From Anaerobiospirillum sp. (lineage in GTDB: Bacteria; Pseudomonadota; Gammaproteobacteria; Enterobacterales; Succinivibrionaceae), in contig JARHZF010000143.1 in the NCBI GenBank assembly GCA_029258325.1, positions 15,830 to 39,829 of the forward strand: DNA of 24,000 nucleotides. Reading direction: 5' to 3'. The position numbers were made by a program, and so were the translations under genes. Under the pieces are notes generated by a model, which was not told the origin of the DNA, did no database searches, and saw only the letters and a program-made list of their open reading frames with translations. This document shows positions 1,418 through 19,739 of this stretch, in pieces (the stretch's first letter is position 1; the number at the start of each line of letters is the position of its first letter).

Positions 1418-2038
1418 TTAGAGTTCACCATTAACTAGATCAAGTATATCATCTGGAGATAATTGAGAATGTTCTTGGAACTCTCTTACAACTGTAAAAT
1501 CAGTATCATCCATAGCAAGTTCTAAATAGAATACATTACTACCTTGAGTGAAGAATGTAATACGTCTTACTACAGGATTATCTAAAGTCATATTCATATT
1601 GATTTGTAACTCATGAGGTAGAGCTAACATCTTAGGTTGACTTTGGGTAATATTGCCATGAAGTTCAGCACTTACTTTACCTGTAAAATTACCAATCATT
1701 TGATTCATAAGCTCACCTAGAGAATTTTGCACTTCATCTGAAATGAATGTTGCATTAAAATCGCTAGCTGATAAGCCCATATTGGTCATATAAGCTGAAT
1801 ATAGTTCAAGAGCACTTTCTTTAGGGAAGTTAATTACAACCATACCAGAGAAAGAGCCACTAAAAAGAACAAAAGTACCAACATCAGGACGTAATGTTGT
1901 TTTTGATATTCTTTGAACCATTGGAGTATATCTAACTTGATTACCTGTAGCTGTTGTAAGTACAGATGTAACACTATCACAAAGTGAAAGCATAATATCA
2001 GCTGAAGTGATTACCTTTTCACCCTTATTATTTTCCAT
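1418..2038 (-). CDS. CheC/CheX/FliY-family (CheX-like) single-domain protein, function unknown (possibly DUF3334-type)
   Basis: ORF track 1418..2050. The ATG at 2038 (MENNKGEKV...) has GAGG 7 nt upstream, whereas the 2050 start is TTG. It contains E113-L-M-N116 followed by exactly 22 residues to P139 (GELMNQMIGNFTGKVSAELHGNITQSQP). This fits the E-X2-N-X22-P core of the published CheC/CheX/FliY phosphatase consensus [D/S]-X3-E-X2-N-X22-P. The -4 position is N and S is at -3. The family call was made by motif only. Confidence 0.6.
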   Translation of the reverse strand: MENNKGEKVITSADIMLSLCDSVTSVLTTATGNQVRYTPMVQRISKTTLRPDVGTFVLFSGSFSGMVVINFPKESALELYSAYMTNMGLSASDFNATFISDEVQNSLGELMNQMIGNFTGKVSAELHGNITQSQPKMLALPHELQINMNMTLDNPVVRRITFFTQGSNVFYLELAMDDTDFTVVREFQEHSQLSPDDILDLVNGEL

Positions 2039-2342
2039 GAATCGCCTCAAAGTTTAATTATTTGTTACTGTAAATAATTACAATAATCAATAAAATAATA
2101 TGATATTGTTTTTAATCTTTTATTTTTTATATGTTTAGATAACATAAAAGACAAAGAATTTGAAAGAAAACATAGTAAATTAGACATGTTTTTTATTCTT
2201 TGTTTATTAAAGTTATAATATAACAATGTTTAGATAAATTTAAAAGTCATTAAAAAATTATTTAAATAATAAAAAAAAGCAAAGATACAATATTGTTAAA
2301 GGATACTCTATACAAAAAATAATATATATGTTTAATTTCTAT

Positions 2343-2388
2343 AATGCTTCTAAAATAACTCTTTTAGAAGCATTGTTGTTATTTTTTT
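2343..2388. terminator. 13-bp perfect hairpin at the glnG 3' end
   Basis: AATGCTTCTAAAA (2343-2355), loop TAACTC, TTTTAGAAGCATT (2362-2374). It starts 12 nt after the glnG stop (2389..2387), so it is the obvious glnG terminator. However, the U-rich tract (GTTGTTATTTTTTT, 2375-2388) is on the plus-strand side. The minus-strand side is followed by AUAGAAAUUAAAC. Confidence 0.6.
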
Positions 2389-3811
2389 ATATATTTAAAT
2401 TTAAGTCTTTAATTTTTCTAGTTAAAGTATTTCTACCCCAACCTAGAAGTTTTGCAGACTCTTGTTTGTGATTGCCTGTATAAGCCATAGCAGCCTCAAG
2501 CATTACTTTTTCAAACTCAGGAACAGCTTCAGATAAAATATCAACTTCACCTGCTTTAAGTCTTCCATCAACCCAATTTCTAAGTTGTTCTTGCCATGAA
2601 ACTTGAGTTTTTGAGGTACCAGATATAGATGTTGCTATCTTTACTTGATTGTTCTTTGCATGTAAAAACTCAGATGGTAGATCTGATAGTTGAATATCAC
2701 GACCTGTTACCATAATAGTTAAATATTTACATAAGTTTTTAAGTTGACGAACATTACCTGGCCATTGTTGGCGACATAAAAATACTAAAACCTCTGATGT
2801 TAGTTTTTTAGGTTCTGTATTGTTTTCAAGAGCACTTTGATTTAAAAAGTGTTTTGCAAGCATTGGTATGTCATTATTTCTATCACGAAGAGGTGGCATA
2901 TTTATATGTATTACATTTAATCTATAATATAAATCAGATATAAATGAGCCATTTTCAACTAAATCTTCAATTTGTAAAGAAGTTGCAACTAAAACTCTAA
3001 CATTACATTTAGTTGGTTTATTAGCACCAACAGCAAGGTATTCTTGATCTTGTAAAACTTGTAATAATCTTGTTTGTACCTCAAGAGGCATATCACAAAT
3101 TTCATTTATAAATAAAGTACCACCATTTGCTCTTGCAATAGCTGATTCATTAAAACTTACATCATCAATCCTACCAAATAACTCTAATGCTATATTATCT
3201 TGTGGTATAGATGACATATTGATAGAGATAAAGTTTTCTTTTTGTCTATCTGAGTGATTGTGTAGAGCAAGAGCTACAAGTTCACGACCTGTACCTGTTT
3301 CACCATGAATTAAAACAGGAACTTCACTTTTTGATACTCTGCCTATAAATTTAAAAACCTCTTGCATAGCAGGAGATTTTCCAATAATTTCAGCATCACC
3401 TATCATAGGGGTATCTGTATTTGGAGTGATCTTTTTTTGCATATTTACTCTATGAACAGCAGCACGTCTAATTAAAGACACAGCTTGCTCAATATCAAAA
3501 GGTTTTGGTAAATATTCAAAAGTACCATTTTCATATGAATCAATTGCAGCTGTTAAATCAGAGTGAGCTGTAATAATGATAAATGGAATATTCTCATCTA
3601 TTTCATGAACTTTTTTTATTAAAGAAAGACCATCTGTACCAGGCATATTTATATCAGAGACAATAACATCAGGACGTTCTGTTTCAAGTGCTTGTAATGC
3701 CTGATCTCCAGTCTCAAAAAGGCGATGAGTTATATTATTTACAGTTAGAGTTTTACCAAATACAAATCTGATGCTTGAATCATCGTCAATCACCCAAATC
3801 ATAGGATTCAT
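2387..3811 (-). CDS. glnG: NtrC-family response regulator (nitrogen regulation protein NR-I) with degenerate AAA+ core
   Basis: 474 aa, colinear with E. coli NtrC as recalled. The receiver is intact (DDD at 9-11, VSD53INMPG, TAHS, LPKPF). The C-terminal HTH HKQESAKLLGWGRNTLTRKIKDL is nearly identical to E. coli HKQEAARLLGWGRNTLTRKLKEL. The gene lies directly downstream of glnL, with RBS GAGAGGAA. Central-domain motifs are altered (see findings). Confidence 0.88.
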   Translation of the reverse strand: MNPMIWVIDDDSSIRFVFGKTLTVNNITHRLFETGDQALQALETERPDVIVSDINMPGTDGLSLIKKVHEIDENIPFIIITAHSDLTAAIDSYENGTFEYLPKPFDIEQAVSLIRRAAVHRVNMQKKITPNTDTPMIGDAEIIGKSPAMQEVFKFIGRVSKSEVPVLIHGETGTGRELVALALHNHSDRQKENFISINMSSIPQDNIALELFGRIDDVSFNESAIARANGGTLFINEICDMPLEVQTRLLQVLQDQEYLAVGANKPTKCNVRVLVATSLQIEDLVENGSFISDLYYRLNVIHINMPPLRDRNNDIPMLAKHFLNQSALENNTEPKKLTSEVLVFLCRQQWPGNVRQLKNLCKYLTIMVTGRDIQLSDLPSEFLHAKNNQVKIATSISGTSKTQVSWQEQLRNWVDGRLKAGEVDILSEAVPEFEKVMLEAAMAYTGNHKQESAKLLGWGRNTLTRKIKDLNLNI

Positions 3812-3833: not shown

Positions 3834-4907
3834 TTAGAATTTTAATTTCTTTAAAGGTAAGATAATTTTAAATGTGGTATTACCTTTTTCACTTTCACAC
3901 TCAATGGTACCATTGTGTCTTTCTACTATATTTTGAGCTATAGATAGTCCAAGTCCAGTTCCATTTTGGCGTGATGTAACCATAGGATAAAAAATAGTTT
4001 GTTTAATACTCTCAGGAATGCCAGGTCCATTATCTGTTATAGATACAACAATAGATGTTGGATATTTAATTCTATTTATAAGAACACCAGCAGTTGCTCT
4101 TGTTACAATTTTAATTGTAGGATGAGATGTATTTGACTCAGTTAAAGCTTGAACAGCATTACTTATAATGTTTAAAAGAGCTTGTTCTATTGCATGCTCA
4201 TCCATTTCTATTTCAGGTAAGGATGGATCATAATCTTTTTCAAAGCGTATATTATCTAAAGTTTCCATTTGCAAAAGAGATAATACTTTCTCGATAATAT
4301 AGTGAATATTGCAAGAAACAAGAGGATTAGGTCTTTGAGGTCCTAATAGATTATCAACTAAAGTCTTAAGTCTATCAGTTTGCTCAATAATAACTTTAGT
4401 GTATTCTTTTATAGAGACTTCTTTACCAAACTCCATATCAAGGAGTTGAGCCGCACCTCTTATACCACCTAGTGGATTTTTGATTTCATGAGCAAGTGAT
4501 CTAATTAAATCTCTTGCAGCAATAGATTGTGTTCTTCTTTGTAAATCATCATTCATCTTATTAAAATAATTATTAGATCTTAATTCGATGACTAATCCTT
4601 TACTTCTGCCACTATAAGCAGAGATATTCATATCAACACGTACATTGATAAAAGGTTCAAGTTTAATGCAGACATCAGCTGCACTAAAGCTTTGGAAATC
4701 TTTTTTTAATGCATTTGTTAGACTATCTATTAACTGTTTTTGATCTTTATCAATAATATCTAATAATTTTAAAGATATTATTTTGGATTTTGACATACAA
4801 AAAAGATGCTCTGCCGCATTATTAGCACTAACAATTCTTAATTGAGAATCAGTTACTAATACTGTTGTAGATATGCTTTCAAGGATTAGATTTGCATCAT
4901 ATTGCAT
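3834..4907 (-). CDS. glnL: nitrogen-regulation sensor histidine kinase NtrB (NR-II)
   Basis: ORF track 3834..4919 (TTG). The ATG at 4907 (MQYDANLILESI...) has GAGG 6 nt upstream. H-box LAHEIKNPLGGIRGAAQLL matches E. coli NtrB LAHEIKNPLGGLRGAAQLL. Also present: EYTKVIIEQTDRL, N-box LLNIISNAVQA, G-boxes DNGPGIP and GTGLGLSIA. Confidence 0.93.
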   Translation of the reverse strand: MQYDANLILESISTTVLVTDSQLRIVSANNAAEHLFCMSKSKIISLKLLDIIDKDQKQLIDSLTNALKKDFQSFSAADVCIKLEPFINVRVDMNISAYSGRSKGLVIELRSNNYFNKMNDDLQRRTQSIAARDLIRSLAHEIKNPLGGIRGAAQLLDMEFGKEVSIKEYTKVIIEQTDRLKTLVDNLLGPQRPNPLVSCNIHYIIEKVLSLLQMETLDNIRFEKDYDPSLPEIEMDEHAIEQALLNIISNAVQALTESNTSHPTIKIVTRATAGVLINRIKYPTSIVVSITDNGPGIPESIKQTIFYPMVTSRQNGTGLGLSIAQNIVERHNGTIECESEKGNTTFKIILPLKKLKF

Positions 4908-4935
4908 GTACAGCCTCAACGTAATAAAAAAAACA

Positions 4936-4952
4936 GATCAATTTTAGTGCAT
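4936..4952 (-). promoter_or_regulatory. candidate NtrC-binding site overlapping the glnL promoter/leader
   Basis: Read in the glnL direction it is ATGCACTAAAATTGATC. The first half-site TGCACTA matches the enterobacterial NtrC site consensus TGCACCA-N3-TGGTGCA, and the second half is weak. It lies 29-45 nt upstream of the glnL ATG. The GCACTAAAAT core is shared with sites at 5038-5055 and 14748-14764. Confidence 0.45.
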
Positions 4953-5021
4953 ATTTTAAACGTTAATCTTTAATAATGATCAATATTTTTTCATTTTGTA
5001 TCTTTTTATAGCTATTGATAT

Positions 5022-5055
5022 ATTGTAGTGCGATATTTTCACTATTTTAGTGCGT
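5022..5055 (-). promoter_or_regulatory. candidate tandem NtrC-binding sites upstream of glnL
   Basis: Read in the glnL direction it is ACGCACTAAAATAGTGAAAATATCGCACTACAAT. The first unit, GCAC-TAAAATA-GTG, has both half-sites (compare E. coli glnA site AGCACTATATTGGTGCA). The second unit (GCACTACAAT) is a half-site whose GCAC lies 22 nt further on. Confidence 0.5.
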
Positions 5056-5173: not shown

Positions 5174-6160
<987 letters not shown>

Positions 6161-6205
6161 TTAAAATGTACAATCCTTTATACTATCTAGTAGAATTAAA
6201 TTTCT

Positions 6206-6234
6206 ATGTTAGCAAAAAAAATCTTATATTTCAA
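6206..6234 (-). promoter_or_regulatory. candidate sigma70 promoter of ebgR
   Basis: On the minus strand: TTGAAA (6234..6229), a 17-nt spacer, TAACAT (6211..6206). This predicts a 5' UTR of about 40 nt. AT-rich background makes chance matches likely. Confidence 0.35.
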
Positions 6235-6238
6235 ATTG

Positions 6239-6258
6239 TTTTACTAAAATTAGTAAAT
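6239..6258. promoter_or_regulatory. everted copy of the ebg palindrome half-sites just upstream of the ebgR -35
   Basis: TTTTACTA-AAAT-TAGTAAAT. These are the same 8-mers as the TAGTAAAA/TTTTACTA operator arms, but in the opposite relative order. Confidence 0.3.
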
Positions 6259-6346
6259 TAAACATATAGAATAAAAAAAATATAAAAAACAAAGTATTAT
6301 CATATTTTATATAAAATAATATGTATATATTAATTTAAAATATTAA

Positions 6347-6754
<408 letters not shown>

Positions 6755-6785
6755 GTTAGTTTGTTTAGTTAGTCTATAAAGTCTT

Positions 6786-6824
6786 AGTTACTCTTTATTT
6801 TTACAAAATAAAGAGTAACTTTTT
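6786..6824 (+). terminator. rho-independent terminator of ygjH
   Basis: 14-bp perfect stem AGTTACTCTTTATT (6786-6799), loop TTTACAA, AATAAAGAGTAACT (6807-6820), then TTTT. Confidence 0.8.
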
Positions 6825-6834
6825 AATAAAAAAT

Positions 6835-6850
6835 AAGTAAAATTTTACTA
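6835..6850. promoter_or_regulatory. orphan near-perfect copy of the ebg palindrome between two terminators
   Basis: AAGTAAAATTTTACTA matches the palindrome at 15 of 16 positions. The 3' flank is also shared with the 6376 copy: AGTAAAATTTTACTAT[A/G]TTTTTT(T)G. Confidence 0.4.
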
Positions 6851-6932
6851 TATTTTTTTGCGTGTTTTTTCCATATATTTAACATTTATTTTTCTATACA
6901 AAAATACTTTTTCTAGATTAGAGATAATAAAA

Positions 6933-6966
6933 AAAAGCCTAGCTCTTAATTGAACTAGGCTTTTTT
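6933..6966. terminator. bidirectional rho-independent terminator (ends the ebg operon after ygjI)
   Basis: AAAAGCCTAG (6933-6942), a 12-nt loop, CTAGGCTTTT (6955-6964). It is flanked by an A-run upstream and a T-run downstream, so it can act on either strand. It lies 47 nt after the ygjI stop. Confidence 0.8.
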
Positions 6967-7012
6967 GATATTTTCGTTAACGCAAAACTTATAAAGTTAT
7001 GTTATGGATATA

Positions 7013-8491
<1,479 letters not shown>

Positions 8492-8508
8492 TTATGTAAT
8501 TTAAATAA

Positions 8509-8534
8509 ATGTATGAGCCTTATGACTCATACAT
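8509..8534 (-). other. intercistronic hairpin between ebgC and ygjI
   Basis: ATGTATGAG (8509-8517), an 8-nt loop, CTCATACAT (8526-8534), starting 8 nt after the ebgC stop. It is followed on the minus strand by UUAUUUAAAUUAC. It could be a partial terminator or an mRNA-stability element. Confidence 0.4.
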
Positions 8535-8541
8535 CTTTAAA

Positions 8542-8994
<453 letters not shown>

Positions 8995-9011
8995 TTATCT
9001 ATGCCTCTCTC

Positions 9012-12097
<3,086 letters not shown>

Positions 12098-12552: not shown

Positions 12553-14391
12553 TTATTCGCCTTTTTTACCACCTGCAGCACGGAATGCTTTAACTCTATC
12601 CATTTCAGATAAGAATTTCTTTCTAATACGAATAGATTTAGGTGTAACTTCAACTAGTTCATCTTCATTAATAAACTCTAAAGCTTGTTCTAAAGACATA
12701 TGTACAGCTGGAGTTAAAATAATATTATCATCAGAACCTGCAGCACGAACGTTAGTTAATTTCTTGGTCTTTAAACAGTTAACAGTTAAGTCATTGCTTC
12801 TGTTATGTAAACCAATAATTTGACCTTCGTATACTTCCTCACCTGCGTCTACAAATAATCTGCCACGCTCTTGTAAGAACCATAGTGCATAAGGAACTGA
12901 TTTGCCTGTATCATTTGAAATTAATACACCATTTACACGCTCACCAATGTTACCACCTACAAATTCATCATAAGAATCGAAAGTGTGATACATGAGACCT
13001 GTACCTGATGTTAATGTCATGTATAGAGTTTGGAAGCCAATTAAACCACGAGCTGGAATTCTATAGTCTAAACGAACACGACCCTTACCATCTGGATTCA
13101 TATTCTTTAATTGACCTTTACGTTTACCAAGCTCTTCCATTACAGCACCTTGATGCTCTTCATTTAGATCAAGGGTTAGAACTTCATAAGGCTCTTGAAT
13201 TTTTCCATTTTCATCTTTGTGTAAAATAACTTCAGGACGAGATACGCCAAGCTCATAGCCCTCACGTCTCATCTCTTCAATTAATACAGATAGATGTAAT
13301 TCACCACGACCTGATACTTTAAATCTATCAGGTTCATTTGTATTTTCTACACGTAATGCAACATTGTGTACTAATTCTTGACGTAATCTTTCTTCAATAT
13401 TACGTGAAGTAATAAATTTACCTTCTTTACCTGCAAATGGAGAAGTATTTACACAGAAGTTCATAGACACAGTTGGCTCATCTACAGATAGAGCAGGTAG
13501 TGCCTCTGCATTTTGTGGATTACAGATAGTATCTGAAATCTTAAGCTCACCTAAGCCTGTGATTGCAACAATATCACCTGCTGATGCTTCTTCAACCTCA
13601 GTACGTCTTAGACCTAGATAACCTAAAACTTGACCAATTCTGCCTTGTCTTGTTGAACCATCAGCACCAATTACAGTAACAGCCTGATTTGCTTTTACGC
13701 TACCACGAGTAATACGACCAACGCCAATAACACCTACATATGAAGTATAGTCAAGTGATGATATTTGCATTTGGAATGGACCTTCAGTATCAGCCTTTGG
13801 TGCAGATACTTTCTCTACTATAGTCTCAAATAGAGGTTCCATAGTATCACCATGATTATCAGCATCAAGAGATGCCCAACCACTTAAAGCAGATGCATAA
13901 ACAATAGGGAAATCTAATTGCTCATCTGTTGCACCTAAGTTATCAAATAAATCAAATACTTGATCAATTACCCAATCTGGTCTTGCACCAGGTCTATCGC
14001 ATTTATTAATAACAACAATAGGGTTTAAACCTTTTGCAAAAGCTTTTTGTGTTACAAATCTTGTTTGAGGCATAGGACCATCAACTGCATCTACTAAAAG
14101 TAGAACACAGTCAACCATAGACATAACACGTTCAACTTCACCACCAAAATCAGCATGTCCTGGAGTATCTACGATATTGATACGATAGTCTTTCCAATTA
14201 ATAGCTGTATTTTTAGAAAGAATTGTAATGCCACGCTCTTTTTCAATGGCATTTGAGTCCATAACTCTTTCTTGACCTAATTCATTTCTATCTAAAGTAC
14301 CTGATTGGCGAAGAAGTTTATCTACTAAGGTAGTTTTACCATGATCTACGTGTGCTATGATCGCAATATTGCGGATCTTTTGTACATCCAT
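12553..14391 (-). CDS. typA: ribosome-associated translational GTPase TypA/BipA
   Basis: 612 aa. [40 protein letters not shown], and EF-G-like domains. It is full-length relative to E. coli BipA (607 aa) and divergent from glnA, as in enterobacteria. Confidence 0.96.
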
Positions 14392-14420
14392 TTAATTTGC
14401 CCTAAAGTATTTCCTTTAAA

Positions 14421-14490
14421 AATAACATATGACTTTAATTAATTTATGTATTAATTAAAAATAGATGAAGTCATATTTATAAGTGTTATT
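14421..14490 (-). other. long imperfect hairpin in the typA 5' region
   Basis: Outer arms are AATAACATATGACTT (14421-14435) and AAGTCATAT...TGTTATT (14468-14476 and 14484-14490). Inner arms are TTAATTAAT (14435-14443) and ATTAATTAA (14450-14458). It lies 30-100 nt upstream of the typA ATG. Confidence 0.3.
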
Positions 14491-14747
14491 TATAATATAA
14501 AGGTATTTTTGAATTATCGAGTATAATGTATTGATTTTAAAAGCTTTAATAAAAATCAATAACAAAACTTTATCACAGTTCGCAATTATAACATTTTTTT
14601 TATGGCAACAAATAAAAATAACTAAAGATAAACTATCTCATCTTTTCCTATTTAATTGAATTTTATTTTCTTTTTTATCATTTTATTTATGGATATTTTT
14701 CTTATAAGAGCTATATAAAAAAGAGCTTTTATGATTTTTTTATTTTT

Positions 14748-14764
14748 TGCACTAAAATGGAAAA
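14748..14764 (+). promoter_or_regulatory. candidate NtrC-binding site upstream of glnA
   Basis: TGCACTAAAATGGAAAA. The left half and spacing match the enterobacterial NtrC consensus TGCACCA-N3-TGGTGCA, while the right half retains only TGG. It shares GCACTAAAAT with the glnL-upstream sites. Confidence 0.45.
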
Positions 14765-14766
14765 TT

Positions 14767-14796
14767 TTGGTTATTATTTAACATACAATTTATAAT
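14767..14796 (+). promoter_or_regulatory. candidate sigma70 promoter of glnA abutting the NtrC-like site
   Basis: TTGGTT (14767-14772), an 18-nt spacer, TATAAT (14791-14796). A second candidate, TTGCTC-N16-TATGAT (14846-14873), lies closer to the gene. AT-rich background makes either uncertain. Confidence 0.3.
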
Positions 14797-14940
14797 AACA
14801 AGTGAAAAAAAGTTTATTAGAAATGTCTTTTTATTTGATAGATATTTGCTCTATTAATTAAAAATACTATGATAAAATTATTATTTGTTTTATAAAAATT
14901 TTATATAAATTTTAAAGCTAAAGGCTACAGGAGTTTTTTT

Positions 14941-16350
14941 ATGTCAGTTACTGATGTATTAGAATTAATTAAAGAAAATGATGTTAAATTTGCAGATCTT
15001 CGATTTACTGACACTAAAGGTAAGGAACAGCATGTTTCTATTCCTGCACGCTTAGTTACTGAAGATTTCTTTACAGAAGGCAAGTTATTTGATGGTTCAT
15101 CAATGAATGGTTGGAAAGGTATTGATAATTCGGATATGCTTTTAAAACCAGATTTAAATACTGTACGTTTAGATCCTTTCTATGCTGATCCTACTATTAT
15201 TATTCGTTGTGATGTTTTAGAAGCAGATACAATGATAGGTTATGATAGAGATCCAAGATCAATTGCTAAAAGAGCAGAGGAATATTTACGTTCAACAGGT
15301 ATTGGTGATGAAGTTCTCCTTGGACCTGAGCTAGAATTCTTTATATTTGATGATGTAAAATTTACAACAAGAATGGGTACATGCATGTATCAAGTTGATG
15401 ACTATGAAGCAGCATGGAACTCAGATAAAACTTATGAAGGTGGTAATAAAGGCCACAGAACAATGGTTAAAGGTGGTTATTTCCCTGTACCTCCTGTTGA
15501 TCCATCACAAGATATTAGATCAGCTATGTGCTTAACTATGGAAGAAATGGGTCTTTTTGTTGAAGCTCATCACCATGAAGTTGCAACATGTGGTCAAAAT
15601 GAAATTGCATGTAAGTTTAATACATTAACTAATAAAGCTGATGAAGTTATGATTTACAAATATGTAGCTCATAACGTAGCAAATCAATATGGTAAGACTG
15701 TTACCTTTATGCCAAAACCAATTTTTGGTGATAATGGCTCTGGTATGCACTGTAATATGTCAATTTCAAAGGGTGGTAAGAACACTTTTGCAGGTAATAT
15801 GTATGGTGGTCTATCTCAAGAAGCTCTATGGTTTATTGGCGGTATTATTAAGCATGCAAAAGCTTTAAATGCTTTTACAAATCCATCAACTAACTCATAT
15901 AAGAGACTAGTTCCTCACTTTGAAGCTCCTGTTATGCTAGCTTATTCTGCATCAAATAGATCTGCATCTATTCGTATTCCTGTTGTTTTAAATCCAAAAA
16001 CAGCTCGTATTGAGGTAAGATTCCCAGACTGTCTTGCAAACCCATACTTAGCATTTGCTGCATTAACAATGGCAGGTCTTGATGGTATTCAAAATAGAAT
16101 TAATCCAGGTGATCCTATGGATAAGAACCTATATGATTTACCACCAGAGGAAGCAGCTTCAATTCCAACAGTAGCAGAGTCTTTAGGTGATGCTTTAAAT
16201 CACTTAGAAGAAGATCATGAATTCTTAATGGAAGGTGGTGTATTCTCAAAAGAAGCTATTGATGCTTATATTGCCCTTAAGAGAGCAGAGGAAGAGAAGG
16301 TAAGAACTATACCTCACCCAGCTGAGTTTGAACTATACTATAGCTTATAA
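14941..16350 (+). CDS. glnA: glutamine synthetase type I
   Basis: 469 aa, the same length as E. coli GlnA and colinear with it: [74 protein letters not shown]. The adenylylation-site context [10 protein letters not shown] is conserved. RBS AGGAG lies 7 nt upstream. Confidence 0.97.
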
Positions 16351-17522: not shown

Positions 17523-19739
17523 TCAAATTATCTCTTTTTTATTTTCATCTAAATTAGTATTGTTAATATTATCTTTTGTTTTCTCTTCTTTATTATCTTC
17601 TTTAGATTTAGGAGGTAGAATTTTACTTTTACTTTCATCCTTATTATCTACATCACTACTTGTTTTTTTATCTGTCTCTTTAGTATCTAAAGTTTTATCA
17701 TCTTTAGCTAAATTTCTATCGCTTTCCTCTTGAAGTTTATCTAAAGCTAAAGATGGACGCATCTCAGAACCTCTTTTTAGAGCTTTAAAGTTATAAATAA
17801 CATCACTATCATTTATATCTTTTTTAAGCTCTACATTAGTAATACTATCTTTACTTTTTGATGTAAAGTTTATAAGACCATCTATAGTGTTGTTATTAAG
17901 AATATACTTTATATTGCCATCAATATTAGATGTAGATGAAATTAAACTTAGCTTATTGTCTATAACACCATTTTCAATATTAGATGTAATAGATAAGTTT
18001 TCGCCACCAAAATCATCATCTCTTAAAAGGAAGATAAGATCTTTAGTATTTGAAATACTATAATTATTAAGTTTACCACCATTAATTAAATCAAGACCAA
18101 ATTTAGATACTAGTATTTGTTTACTGTTTATATCAATTTTTCCAGTAAGATTTTCTTTAAATTTTTTGTAATCATTAGATCTAAGTTCAATATCTAAATT
18201 TATTTGCCCTGCAAATAAATTAGGTAGTAAATTAGAGTTAATTTCAGATAAATTAAAATCATCTGCTTTTATAGATAAATAGGCATTACCTTTATTTAAA
18301 GAAAAATCACCTGTTATTGCTACACTTGATTTTATAAAGGTTAAATCAGGTATTGATACTGTGATTAAATTATCTGTAAGTGTAGTTAAGACAAAGATTT
18401 TTTTTAAGTATAAATCAGAGTATAAAAATGACTTTGCATCAAAGGTAATTAAACCTGCTTTATTACCACTTAGGCTATTATCCTTTATATTTAAATTAGT
18501 TAAAGATAAAGAGAAATCTTTAATGGAGACAGGAAGTTTATTTATAAAAGATAAAAATTCAGCATTTATAATATTAATAGCTTGAATATTAAAATTATAA
18601 TTTTCTGTTTTATCTTTTATATAAGAATAAAGTCTATCATCAAGCTCAATTTTAGTCTTTTCTAAATTTAATTTATATAAATTAAAGGTATTACTATCTT
18701 TTTTGTACTCGCCTATAACATCAAAACGACCTAAAGATACTAGACCTTGAGCAGATATTGTATAACTATCATCAATAAAAGATGCTGTAGTTGTTATATT
18801 GCGTAAAGTTTCTTTTATATCACTTTTAACAACTTCAGATATACTGCCATCAAAATTAAAAGCAATAGTATCAGTTAAAGATAAGTCATTAATATAACCA
18901 TCAATATCTGAAATTAAAAGATTTTTCTTTTTATTTTCATAAATAATATTATTTATCTTTATCTTATCTGCTTTTATATGAAAGTTATCTAAAAATGGTG
19001 TTCTTTCTTTTAAAATAAGATTAGATATGACAGTATTTTTTAATACAACATTATGTGTGTCTATGTCATATTCTAAATTACAAAGAACACTACCACCACT
19101 TATTCTTGCATTTACATCATCAAAGAATAATTTATTGTCAGAACTCTTATAGTTAAAGCTTATACTTTTAAATTTCTCATTAAATAAAGATCCATCTTCA
19201 AAGTGAGCTTGAGCTGATGCTATAGATAAAATATCTTTATAAGTAACGTTATAAAGATTTAAATTAGCTTTTTCTACTTTAAGATTATCTTCATCTATTT
19301 GAATTTCATCAATTCTTATTCTATTTGCTTTAAAACTATTAAAATCTTTTTGTGTGGTTATTAAATTTGTTAATTCCTTTAAGTTATAACTTGGATTTTT
19401 TAAATATAGATATTCAAAATTTAAATCTTTATCAAAGATAAATTTAATTAGATCTAACTCTAAATAAATTTCACCTATTTTTTCATTTTCAATTTTAAAA
19501 TCTTGAATACGTAAAGTTCCAGGATAAAGAGGAGAGAACTCCACTTTATTTAAAGATACTTCTTTATTAATCTTACTTTGAATTAGGTTTGCAAGTGGTT
19601 CTTTTATGGTATTACCATTTAAAAATATAAAACCTGCAAAGATAATTAAAGTAAACAAAGAGCCTATAATTAGTAAAAAGTTATATAAAAGAGTTGCTGT
19701 TTTACTTCTTTTTTTTATAACTTGTCTTCTAAAAGCCAT
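17523..19739 (-). CDS. large N-terminally anchored envelope protein, AsmA/YicH-like
   Basis: 738 aa. It has a basic N-terminus and one TM helix (LLYNFLLIIGSLFTLIIFAGFIFL), followed by a long N/K/I/S/D-rich region that looks beta-rich. The start is 3 nt after the recG stop. E. coli has the AsmA-family gene yicH near recG, and RPSLAL near the C-terminus resembles what I recall of YicH. The last 80 aa or so are a K/D/E/N/T low-complexity tail. The family call is tentative. Confidence 0.5.
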   Translation of the reverse strand: MAFRRQVIKKRSKTATLLYNFLLIIGSLFTLIIFAGFIFLNGNTIKEPLANLIQSKINKEVSLNKVEFSPLYPGTLRIQDFKIENEKIGEIYLELDLIKFIFDKDLNFEYLYLKNPSYNLKELTNLITTQKDFNSFKANRIRIDEIQIDEDNLKVEKANLNLYNVTYKDILSIASAQAHFEDGSLFNEKFKSISFNYKSSDNKLFFDDVNARISGGSVLCNLEYDIDTHNVVLKNTVISNLILKERTPFLDNFHIKADKIKINNIIYENKKKNLLISDIDGYINDLSLTDTIAFNFDGSISEVVKSDIKETLRNITTTASFIDDSYTISAQGLVSLGRFDVIGEYKKDSNTFNLYKLNLEKTKIELDDRLYSYIKDKTENYNFNIQAINIINAEFLSFINKLPVSIKDFSLSLTNLNIKDNSLSGNKAGLITFDAKSFLYSDLYLKKIFVLTTLTDNLITVSIPDLTFIKSSVAITGDFSLNKGNAYLSIKADDFNLSEINSNLLPNLFAGQINLDIELRSNDYKKFKENLTGKIDINSKQILVSKFGLDLINGGKLNNYSISNTKDLIFLLRDDDFGGENLSITSNIENGVIDNKLSLISSTSNIDGNIKYILNNNTIDGLINFTSKSKDSITNVELKKDINDSDVIYNFKALKRGSEMRPSLALDKLQEESDRNLAKDDKTLDTKETDKKTSSDVDNKDESKSKILPPKSKEDNKEEKTKDNINNTNLDENKKEII

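Follow-up and report, generated by a model that had tools for sequence, protein, structure and literature searches.

A clade-wide NtrC orthologue of Succinivibrionaceae with a degenerate AAA+ core, probably acting independently of sigma54

The nitrogen regulator NtrC (GlnG) belongs to the bacterial enhancer-binding proteins (EBPs) and combines a receiver domain, an AAA+ ATPase core and, at its C terminus, a domain of helix-turn-helix (HTH) type. This article concerns the ntrC gene in a stretch of 24,000 nucleotides from Anaerobiospirillum sp. (GenBank assembly GCA_029258325.1, contig JARHZF010000143.1, positions 15,830 to 39,829; hereafter the window), whose product has lost the GAFTGA loop together with the Walker A Lys and the Walker B Asp. 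A single clade of Succinivibrionaceae, which comprises the genera Succinatimonas, Succinivibrio, Anaerobiospirillum and Avisuccinivibrio, shows the same degenerate state in every one of its 94 protein clusters and 56 species loci. With a probability that we put at roughly 70%, the NtrC of this clade is a sigma54-independent, phosphorylation-controlled regulator that acts at sigma70 promoters. No paper on this Succinivibrionaceae NtrC was found in the searchable literature.

Domain order, the ntrB partner and synteny all mark the window gene as a true NtrC orthologue. The Pfam domains Response_reg, Sigma54_activat, AAA_lid_14 and HTH_8 are all matched above their cutoffs, with the Sigma54_activat match (E 1.2e-47) extending over profile positions 1-167 of 168, and the protein is 48% identical to Escherichia coli GlnG (b3868). 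The ntrC/NR(I) models are by far its best NCBIfam matches despite missed cutoffs, the best of them being ntrC TIGR01818 (541 bits against a cutoff of 558.6), while NF008176 gives 529.8 against a cutoff of 620; the TyrR model gives 195 bits against a cutoff of 576. This equivalog shortfall is consistent with a degenerate core. Because the NtrC equivalog cutoffs are missed, members of the clade are named by NCBI only as 'sigma 54-interacting transcriptional regulator', a name also carried by the protein cluster of P0033, which lacks the sigma54-interacting loop and falls ~18 bits short of the NtrC equivalog. The gene is a full-length open reading frame (ORF), with ntrB 22 bp upstream of it and passing its own NR(II) model, NF008293, at 345 bits against a cutoff of 240.

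Two alignments, one by HMMER to Aquifex NtrC1 and the other by MAFFT to E. coli GlnG taken from NC_000913.3, gave the same substitutions in the AAA+ core. The Walker A Lys is replaced by Arg (R176, codon 3284-3286) and the Walker B Asp by Asn (N236, codon 3104-3106), a 5-residue gap falls exactly on GAFTGA in the HMMER alignment to NtrC1, and the L2 Arg of E. coli NtrC is Pro; the phospho-acceptor is D54 in E. coli NtrC and D53 here. An earlier reading of the window, made from its letters alone (the sequence-only reading), had described the protein as a full-length NtrC orthologue with a changed AAA+ core, encoded beside an intact ntrB. That description is borne out by domains, synteny and alignments. 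The positions it gave for R176, N236, the L1 remnant and D53 are correct, the E. coli NtrC strings that it gave agree with the glnG sequence of NC_000913.3, and alignment to profiles restored neither Lys, Asp nor GAFTGA. Its further statement that every catalytic or coupling signature had been replaced, leaving a fully degenerate core, went too far: the Walker A Lys, GAFTGA, the Walker B Asp and FREDL are lost, but the Walker B Glu, the RLN Arg, the sensor-II Arg and the P-loop glycines are kept. In P-loop ATPases, the Walker A Lys to Arg and Walker B Asp to Asn changes are classical hydrolysis-dead substitutions. Since the window protein carries both, it would not be expected to hydrolyze ATP, and since its L1 loop is deleted and its L2 Arg replaced, it would not be expected to contact sigma54; by the same sequence features the NtrC of the whole clade has probably lost ATP hydrolysis and probably depends on sigma70.

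The extent of the degenerate state was established by a homologue search over 5.8 billion proteins, of which the best 120 matches were listed. Among these matches are 93 clusters at 54-80% identity to window NtrC, the named ones being assigned to Succinivibrio, Succinatimonas, Anaerobiospirillum or Succinivibrionaceae; the next matches, at 50% identity or less, are from Ruminobacter and Aeromonas. Walker A contains Arg in 94/94 clade clusters as opposed to Lys in 25/25 canonical relatives, and GAFTGA is deleted in 94/94; throughout the clade the L1 region around it varies and is shortened by 5-8 residues. The Walker B Asp is represented by Asn in 74 clusters, by Ser in 18, and by Asp and Thr in one each, while 93 of the 94 retain the Walker B Glu. 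The arginine-finger (R-finger) region follows the pattern F-(I/N)-(S/A)-DL, in which the first Arg of FREDL has become Ile (51 clusters) or Asn (30) and the Glu has become Ser (65) or Ala (18), whereas the more distant group of Ruminobacter and Aeromonas is canonical throughout. Retained elements include the RLN Arg (88/94), the sensor-II Arg of GNVRQL (81/94) and the G-x-x-G-T-G backbone (92-94 of 94, Thr being replaced by Ser in two), and D53 is invariant in the clade alignment (A1). A locus scan with one genome per GTDB species found the same state in 56 loci, among them those of S. hippei YIT 12066 (the nearest named relative, at 79% identity), A. succiniciproducens DSM 6400 and S. dextrinosolvens DSM 3072. 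The ntrC frame is intact in 55 of these loci and in the window, the exception, L056, being cut by a contig end.

In a neighbour-joining tree, the clade is monophyletic on a long stem from Ruminobacter, and the loss of the motifs appears to have taken place on this stem, after Ruminobacter and the canonical locus L073 had branched off, which supplies the date that the sequence-only reading had sought from a survey of relatives. Within a representative library of 1.84 billion proteins, the clade in its entirety is reduced to a single 50% cluster and a fragment. In a comparison set of 151 sequences, made up of the 150 nearest 50%-identity representatives and the query, Walker A Arg occurs only in the clade's three sequences; about 12 other representatives are without GAFTGA, and all of them have the Walker A Lys. 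As regards the records themselves, the clade-locus contigs L014, L019 and L052 were deposited as 'Firmicutes bacterium CAG:534', 'Akkermansia muciniphila' and 'Bacteroidaceae bacterium', and several more bear the label 'uncultured Enterobacterales'; mis-binning or mislabelling of metagenome-assembled genomes is the probable cause. Outside the clade, the canonical NtrC homologue P0094 (557 aa) contains an internal duplication of ~85 residues, from GAFTGA through the R-finger region, for which an assembly artefact and a real tandem duplication are both possible.

Selection on the protein was assessed by the Nei-Gojobori method over 174 within-clade pairs, together with a comparison of identities between lineages. 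The ratio dN/dS is 0.07 for the receiver, 0.18 for the AAA+ core, 0.07 for the lid and 0.05 for the HTH. For the same four domains in the same order, identity is 0.80, 0.65, 0.86 and 0.89 within the clade, 0.57, 0.81, 0.62 and 0.77 between E. coli and Ruminobacter, and 0.53, 0.51, 0.49 and 0.65 between the clade and Ruminobacter. The AAA+ core is thus relaxed but clearly not neutral, and a burst of core change took place on the clade stem. Positions conserved in at least 95% of sequences fall from 70% of the AAA+ core in canonical NtrC to 27% in the clade, whereas in the lid they rise from 46% to 62%. Only nine differences are fixed between the clade and canonical NtrC; K176R is one of them, and four others (E358K, R362K, A368V and E372D) lie in the lid. 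The lid segment EPKKLTSEVLVFLCRQxWPGNVRQLKNLCKYLTIMVTGRDIQLSDLPSEF is near-invariant in the clade, where lid conservation exceeds both that of the clade receiver domain and that of the same segment among canonical NtrCs. AlphaFold2 predicts the AAA+ fold with confidence (pLDDT ~87-94) and with L1 shrunk to a short turn. The predicted domain superposes on the AAA+ domains of FleQ, NtrC1, LuxO and PspF at a TM score of ~0.9, and the best full-length structural match is Brucella abortus NtrX (Foldseek E 2.5e-38).

The DNA upstream of ntrB and glnA provides the second line of evidence. In 32 clade loci, a perfect GCAC-N7-GTGC palindrome, mostly GCACTATTTTTGTGC, lies 67-79 bp before the ntrB start codon, while a control set of 45 ntrC-DUF3334 spacers contains no perfect palindrome. 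In ~16-18 of the 36 loci displayed, a TGnTAAAGT-like extended -10 element comes 16 nt after the palindrome, and a second GCAC half-site comes next; another sub-clade carries boxes on both sides of a conserved promoter-like element, TTGCAC-N17-TATATT. The window has three box-like sites in this region, and its 11-mer TGCACTAAAAT has exactly two occurrences in the whole window, one lying upstream of ntrB and the other upstream of glnA. Since an NtrC operator precedes ntrB in canonical relatives too, this operator is ancestral. Judged by these sites and by an HTH that is 89% identical within the clade, the NtrC of the clade should still recognize the classical NtrC box GCAC-N7-GTGC.

The glnA promoter differs more deeply between the two groups. 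E. coli glnA, used as a control, has two perfect GCAC-N7-GTGC sites and TGGCACAGATTTCGCT upstream. In each of Ruminobacter, L073 and Aeromonas, one perfect palindrome lies at -163 to -196, with TGGCAC-N5-xxGC found at -73 to -75; for the canonical relatives overall, these ranges are -163 to -220 and -73 to -99. A -24/-12 promoter is thus present in 4/5 canonical relatives, compared with 0/11 clade glnA spacers, the 549 bp spacer of the window among them; a match with two mismatches in the glnA spacer of L005 is absent from its sister L018. Instead, several clade glnA spacers show an NtrC-like box shortly upstream of a TAAAAT-like box. The link to NtrC at the window glnA is weak, because the single site there, TGCACTAAAATGGAA, has only one canonical half-site. 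Footprinting of the glnA promoter by alignment was tried for the window sub-lineage and abandoned, the spacers being too divergent and AT-rich to align.

The proposal that NtrC had been uncoupled from sigma54 and from ATP hydrolysis while retaining a function, also made in the sequence-only reading, is supported by the clade-wide state, purifying selection, the predicted fold, the NtrC-type operators and the absence of a -24/-12 promoter at glnA. In the mechanism that we favour, the AAA+ core would have lost the sigma54-contact loop, the Walker A Lys and the Walker B Asp on the clade stem, with the protein still under selection and presumably still made. NtrB would phosphorylate D53, the unchanged Fis-type HTH would bind the classical NtrC box, and the still-folded AAA+ core and conserved lid would serve oligomerization, perhaps through nucleotide binding without hydrolysis. 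Action on a -24/-12 promoter from a distant enhancer would thereby be replaced by binding at or beside sigma70-type promoters; the predicted -10-like elements adjoining the clade boxes (TGnTAAAGT, TATATT and TAAAAT) occur without -24/-12 elements. The best-supported step would be that NtrC represses its own operon, ntrBC, much as happens at E. coli glnLp. For glnA and other nitrogen genes, activation that is direct and sigma70-dependent, in the manner of VpsR and of Rhodobacter and Caulobacter NtrC, is inferred from the missing sigma54 promoter, from where the boxes lie and from precedent. The invariant Walker A Arg and the retained sensor-II and RLN arginines may mean that nucleotide binding for oligomerization persists, and the unusual conservation of the lid suggests a new interaction surface.

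The strongest competing explanation holds that NtrC in this clade is a repressor only, which would have kept its ancestral operator function without activating anything, glnA being constitutive or otherwise controlled. It would then work as E. coli NtrC does at glnLp and glnAp1, where neither an ATPase nor sigma54 is needed. The strongest cis evidence, an operator overlapping the presumed ntrB promoter in the same layout as in canonical relatives, agrees with it, as do NtrC-like boxes that overlap the core promoter region of glnA in several loci, and a repressor role has been described for Brucella NtrX, the best structural match. However, a pure repressor leaves unexplained both the invariant Walker A Arg and a lid more conserved than in canonical NtrC, repression of glnA under nitrogen limitation would be physiologically backwards, and the boxes at about -37, -49 and -61 relative to the TAAAAT boxes (by our own count) resemble activator positions. 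We consider this explanation rather unlikely.

It is very unlikely that NtrC of the clade is still sigma54-dependent, either through another contact surface or in mixed oligomers with a canonical EBP that supplies GAFTGA and the ATPase. Matches resembling -24/-12 elements do occur in the typA-ntrB spacer of three loci, 187-219 bp upstream of ntrB (L007 3445-3460 TGGCACCCGTCCTGCA, L010 3956-3971 TGGAACGGTCATTGCA and L011 ~8645-8660 CGGCACTCCTGCTGCT), with an NtrC palindrome ~60 bp further upstream in L007 and L011. A sigma54 promoter at this place was nevertheless rejected, as the matches do not align with one another or keep a conserved position, and their overall frequency is that of chance (17 sigma54-like matches observed in ~1 Mb of clade DNA against 14.4 +/- 3.5 expected). 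The -24/-12 element that has a fixed position at glnA in relatives is missing from all 11 clade loci, and the Walker A Lys, Walker B Asp, L1 loop and L2 Arg are all lost. No second EBP was seen in the fetched loci, which span the ntrC neighbourhood only.

Several points weigh against the preferred reading of NtrC as a sigma70 regulator, and the first two of them also favour continued dependence on sigma54. The clade may still encode rpoN, and a 2025 study in Caulobacter found that NtrC alleles without GAFTGA still affect sigma54-dependent flagellar genes. The Walker A Lys to Arg change is compatible with nucleotide binding and, rarely, with slow hydrolysis. The predicted -10 boxes are consensus guesses in AT-rich DNA, and the clade sample of glnA promoters is small, because glnA lies nearby in only 10/56 related loci and in the window. 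In the sub-lineage of the window, moreover, the glnA spacer is unalignable and has a single half-canonical box. On rpoN itself, tblastn with E. coli RpoN, LptB, Hpf, PtsN and RapZ returned nothing relevant from ~1 Mb of loci that cover the ntrC neighbourhood only, and the result is hence uninformative; a literature search found no paper tying Succinivibrio or Succinivibrionaceae to rpoN or sigma54, and the supplements of one sigma54-regulon survey do not mention Succinivibrionaceae. Decay or loss of function of the gene, or an artefact in alignment or assembly, might account for the many conserved core positions lost and for the narrowly missed NCBIfam cutoffs, but is refuted by dN/dS far below 1 in every domain and by the same residues being fixed in 94 independent clusters from many assemblies, the intact frames, the confident predicted fold and the agreement of three independent alignments also standing against it.

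A broader reading joins these observations into a one-step rewiring, in a major family of rumen and gut Gammaproteobacteria, of the entire nitrogen regulon from sigma54 to sigma70, linked to the inversion that splits glnA from ntrBC (described below). The NtrC ATPase would here have become a non-hydrolysing switch in which nucleotide or ligand sensing governs oligomerization and of which the invariant Arg is the mark, the lid would have become a contact for RNA polymerase, and rpoN would possibly have been lost. This joint reading is put forward tentatively, as a possibility that we doubt more than we believe; if true, it would be the first such case among gammaproteobacterial NtrC orthologues, and the first with the catalytic residues gone.

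Atypical EBPs form an established group, which includes the NtrC proteins of Rhodobacter capsulatus and Caulobacter, VpsR, NtrX, TyrR, PhhR, HupR and HsfA, so that R. capsulatus, the precedent named in the sequence-only reading, is one of several. The window protein shares with E. coli NtrC (NR-I) the REC-AAA+-HTH_8 (REC, receiver) architecture, the ntrB partner, the neighbours typA, glnA and engB, the GCAC-N7-GTGC box and an operator upstream of ntrB. It differs in the Lys to Arg, Asp to Asn, FREDL to FISDL and L2 Arg to Pro changes and the GAFTGA deletion, in having no -24/-12 element at glnA, in the position of glnA outside the ntrBC operon and in scores below the NCBIfam equivalog cutoffs.

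Both NtrC orthologues so far known without GAFTGA come from Alphaproteobacteria. NtrC of R. capsulatus, in which the L1/GAFTGA region is deleted, activates sigma70 RNA polymerase in a phosphorylation-dependent manner and is reported to need ATP binding (Bowman and Kranz, 1998, as cited in later literature). From this need for ATP binding, an intact Walker A would be implied. Its loop was lost independently, and in the window protein the Walker A Lys is Arg and the Walker B Asp is Asn. NtrC of Caulobacter crescentus, which has an 8-residue L1 deletion, is both an activator and a repressor at sigma70 promoters and is required for glnA expression, its Walker A K178 and Walker B D235 being present and needed for function (North et al., 2023, J Bacteriol 205:e0018123); Succinivibrionaceae NtrC has naturally lost the counterparts of both. 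From these comparisons, Succinivibrionaceae NtrC appears to be a third, independent GAFTGA-less NtrC lineage, and the first in which the catalytic Lys and Asp are gone.

Outside the NtrC family, Vibrio cholerae VpsR is a REC-AAA+-HTH protein without GAFTGA and with a non-consensus Walker B (ND), which binds beside the -35 region and, in the way of a class II activator, stimulates sigma70 RNA polymerase; it controls biofilm genes and needs cyclic di-GMP, phosphorylation not being needed (PMC6158489). Like clade NtrC, it is gammaproteobacterial, GAFTGA-less and odd in Walker B (ND, compared with NE/SE in the clade), but it is not an NtrC orthologue and has 26% identity in the structural alignment. 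Brucella abortus NtrX (PDB 5M7N/O/P) is likewise an atypical EBP without GAFTGA, but keeps the Walker A GAGKE and the Walker B DE and belongs to a separate paralogous family restricted to Alphaproteobacteria. E. coli TyrR and Pseudomonas PhhR are AAA+ EBP homologues without sigma54 coupling that use promoter-proximal boxes at sigma70 promoters. They use ATP-dependent oligomerization. Unlike clade NtrC, they lack a receiver domain, their control being by amino-acid ligands, and they are not orthologous to it.

The gene order around ntrBC and glnA (Table 1) supports the assignment of orthology. Ruminobacter and L073, with canonical NtrC, have the order typA <> glnA-DUF4124-ntrB-ntrC-(DUF3334)-engB-gmk-rpoZ-spoT, and Aeromonas has typA <> glnA-DUF4124-ntrB-ntrC, while the clade has glnA <> typA-ntrB-ntrC-DUF3334-engB-gmk. 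The clade order is the same neighbourhood after inversion of a typA-glnA block and loss of DUF4124, and the degenerate NtrC is for this reason an orthologue and not a paralogue. A second, canonical NtrC paralogue within the clade was considered and rejected: the four canonical proteins checked, P0096, P0098, P0101 and P0103, sit in the ancestral typA <> glnA-DUF4124-ntrB-ntrC context and would therefore be orthologues from other lineages. When window 12553-16350 is compared with loci L002-L056, L065 and L068-L074, the inversion, with the loss of the small DUF4124 gene, is found across the whole degenerate-NtrC clade, while Aeromonas, Ruminobacter and L073 keep the ancestral order. It took ntrBC out of read-through from the glnA promoter and phylogenetically coincides with the motif loss.

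Table 1. Features of the window discussed in the text, with positions counted from its first letter.
Feature	Position	Strand	Evidence or remark
DUF3334 protein with CheX-like (CheY-P phosphatase fold) region	1418-2050	-	just downstream of ntrC
ntrC (glnG) orthologue, 474 aa, atypical AAA+ core	2387-3811	-	Pfam domain set, NCBIfam, synteny
Fis-type HTH (HTH_8)	2405-2524	-	HTH_8 3.4e-13
AAA+ lid, residues 309-390, including sensor-II GNVRQL	2642-2887	-	AAA_lid_14; unusually conserved in clade
AAA+ core, Sigma54_activat, residues 142-303	2903-3388	-	relaxed but still purifying selection
R-finger region FISDLYYRLN (canonical FREDLFHRLN)	2915-2944	-	Arg and Glu of FREDL replaced, RLN Arg intact
Walker B LFINE (D236N), Glu retained	3101-3115	-	E. 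coli FLDEIG becomes FINEIC
L1 loop remnant, GAFTGA deleted, residues 210-229	3125-3184	-	5-residue gap relative to NtrC1 and E. coli
Walker A GETGTGRE (K176R), from residue 170	3281-3304	-	E. coli GESGTGKE from residue 168
Receiver domain, residues 5-114, phospho-acceptor D53	3470-3799	-	Response_reg 4.3e-25
ntrB (glnL), intact histidine kinase	3834-4919	-	PAS, HisKA, HATPase_c; NCBIfam NR(II) NF008293
ntrB upstream region, three NtrC-box-like sites	4941-5054	-	GCACTAAAATAGTGA 5053-5039, GCACTACAATA 5031-5021, TGCACTAAAAT 4951-4941
typA/bipA, divergent from glnA; directly upstream of ntrB in clade	12553-14391	-	ORF translation, synteny
Single NtrC-box-like site TGCACTAAAATGGAA, 193 bp upstream of glnA	14748-14762	+	one half-site canonical
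glnA, type I glutamine synthetase, separate from ntrBC	14941-16350	+	ORF translation; 70% identical to E. coli GlnA

The earlier description of the locus as E. coli-like did not hold, since glnA lies 11 kb from ntrBC on the opposite strand, typA-glnA is inverted clade-wide, and the window genome alone carries a 7.6 kb block between typA and ntrB (5174-12062), where the spacer is ~200 bp in most relatives. The block encodes a LacI-family regulator, a CsaA-like tRNA-binding protein, an amino-acid permease, a YhcH/DUF386 protein and a 1016-aa beta-galactosidase (lacZ). Most Succinivibrio and Anaerobiospirillum loci (L012-L017, L019-L035, L041-L056 and L065) have no type I glnA within 10 kb despite the presence of typA-ntrB-ntrC; their genomes carry glnA elsewhere, or another type of glutamine synthetase instead. 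Downstream of ntrC, the DUF3334 gene is present in 45 clade loci and in canonical L073, and is absent from this position in the Ruminobacter loci L068-L071 and in Aeromonas. Its product could be a phosphatase of a receiver domain. The gene was rejected as a co-evolved partner of NtrC, as it adjoins canonical ntrC in L073 too and its upstream spacer is without NtrC boxes.

The window has ~30% G+C, and gmk, engB, the DUF3334/CheX-like gene, ntrC and ntrB all lie on its minus strand. An Rfam scan of the window gave no matches. A 738-aa ORF at 17523-19739 on the minus strand, between yihY/BrkB and recG, has no Pfam match and encodes an N-terminal hydrophobic segment and a low-complexity tail rich in Lys, Asn and Asp.

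The family offers a before-and-after pair, in which the canonical NtrC of Ruminobacter and L073, together with an enhancer and a -24/-12 promoter at glnA, contrasts with the degenerate core, the absence of -24/-12 elements and the promoter-proximal boxes of Succinivibrio, Succinatimonas and Anaerobiospirillum. Such a pair can show how an enhancer-binding ATPase may be converted to an ordinary sigma70 regulator, and which residues, such as the Walker A Arg and those of the lid, later come under constraint. Whether the Ntr branch alone or the whole sigma54 system was abandoned is decided by the status of rpoN, which leaves the verdict on the NtrC protein unchanged. Throughout the clade, the public name 'sigma 54-interacting transcriptional regulator' is probably an error. 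Rumen and gut communities, in which ammonia assimilation is central, contain Succinivibrionaceae in abundance, so that E. coli should not serve as the template when the nitrogen regulation of this family is modelled.

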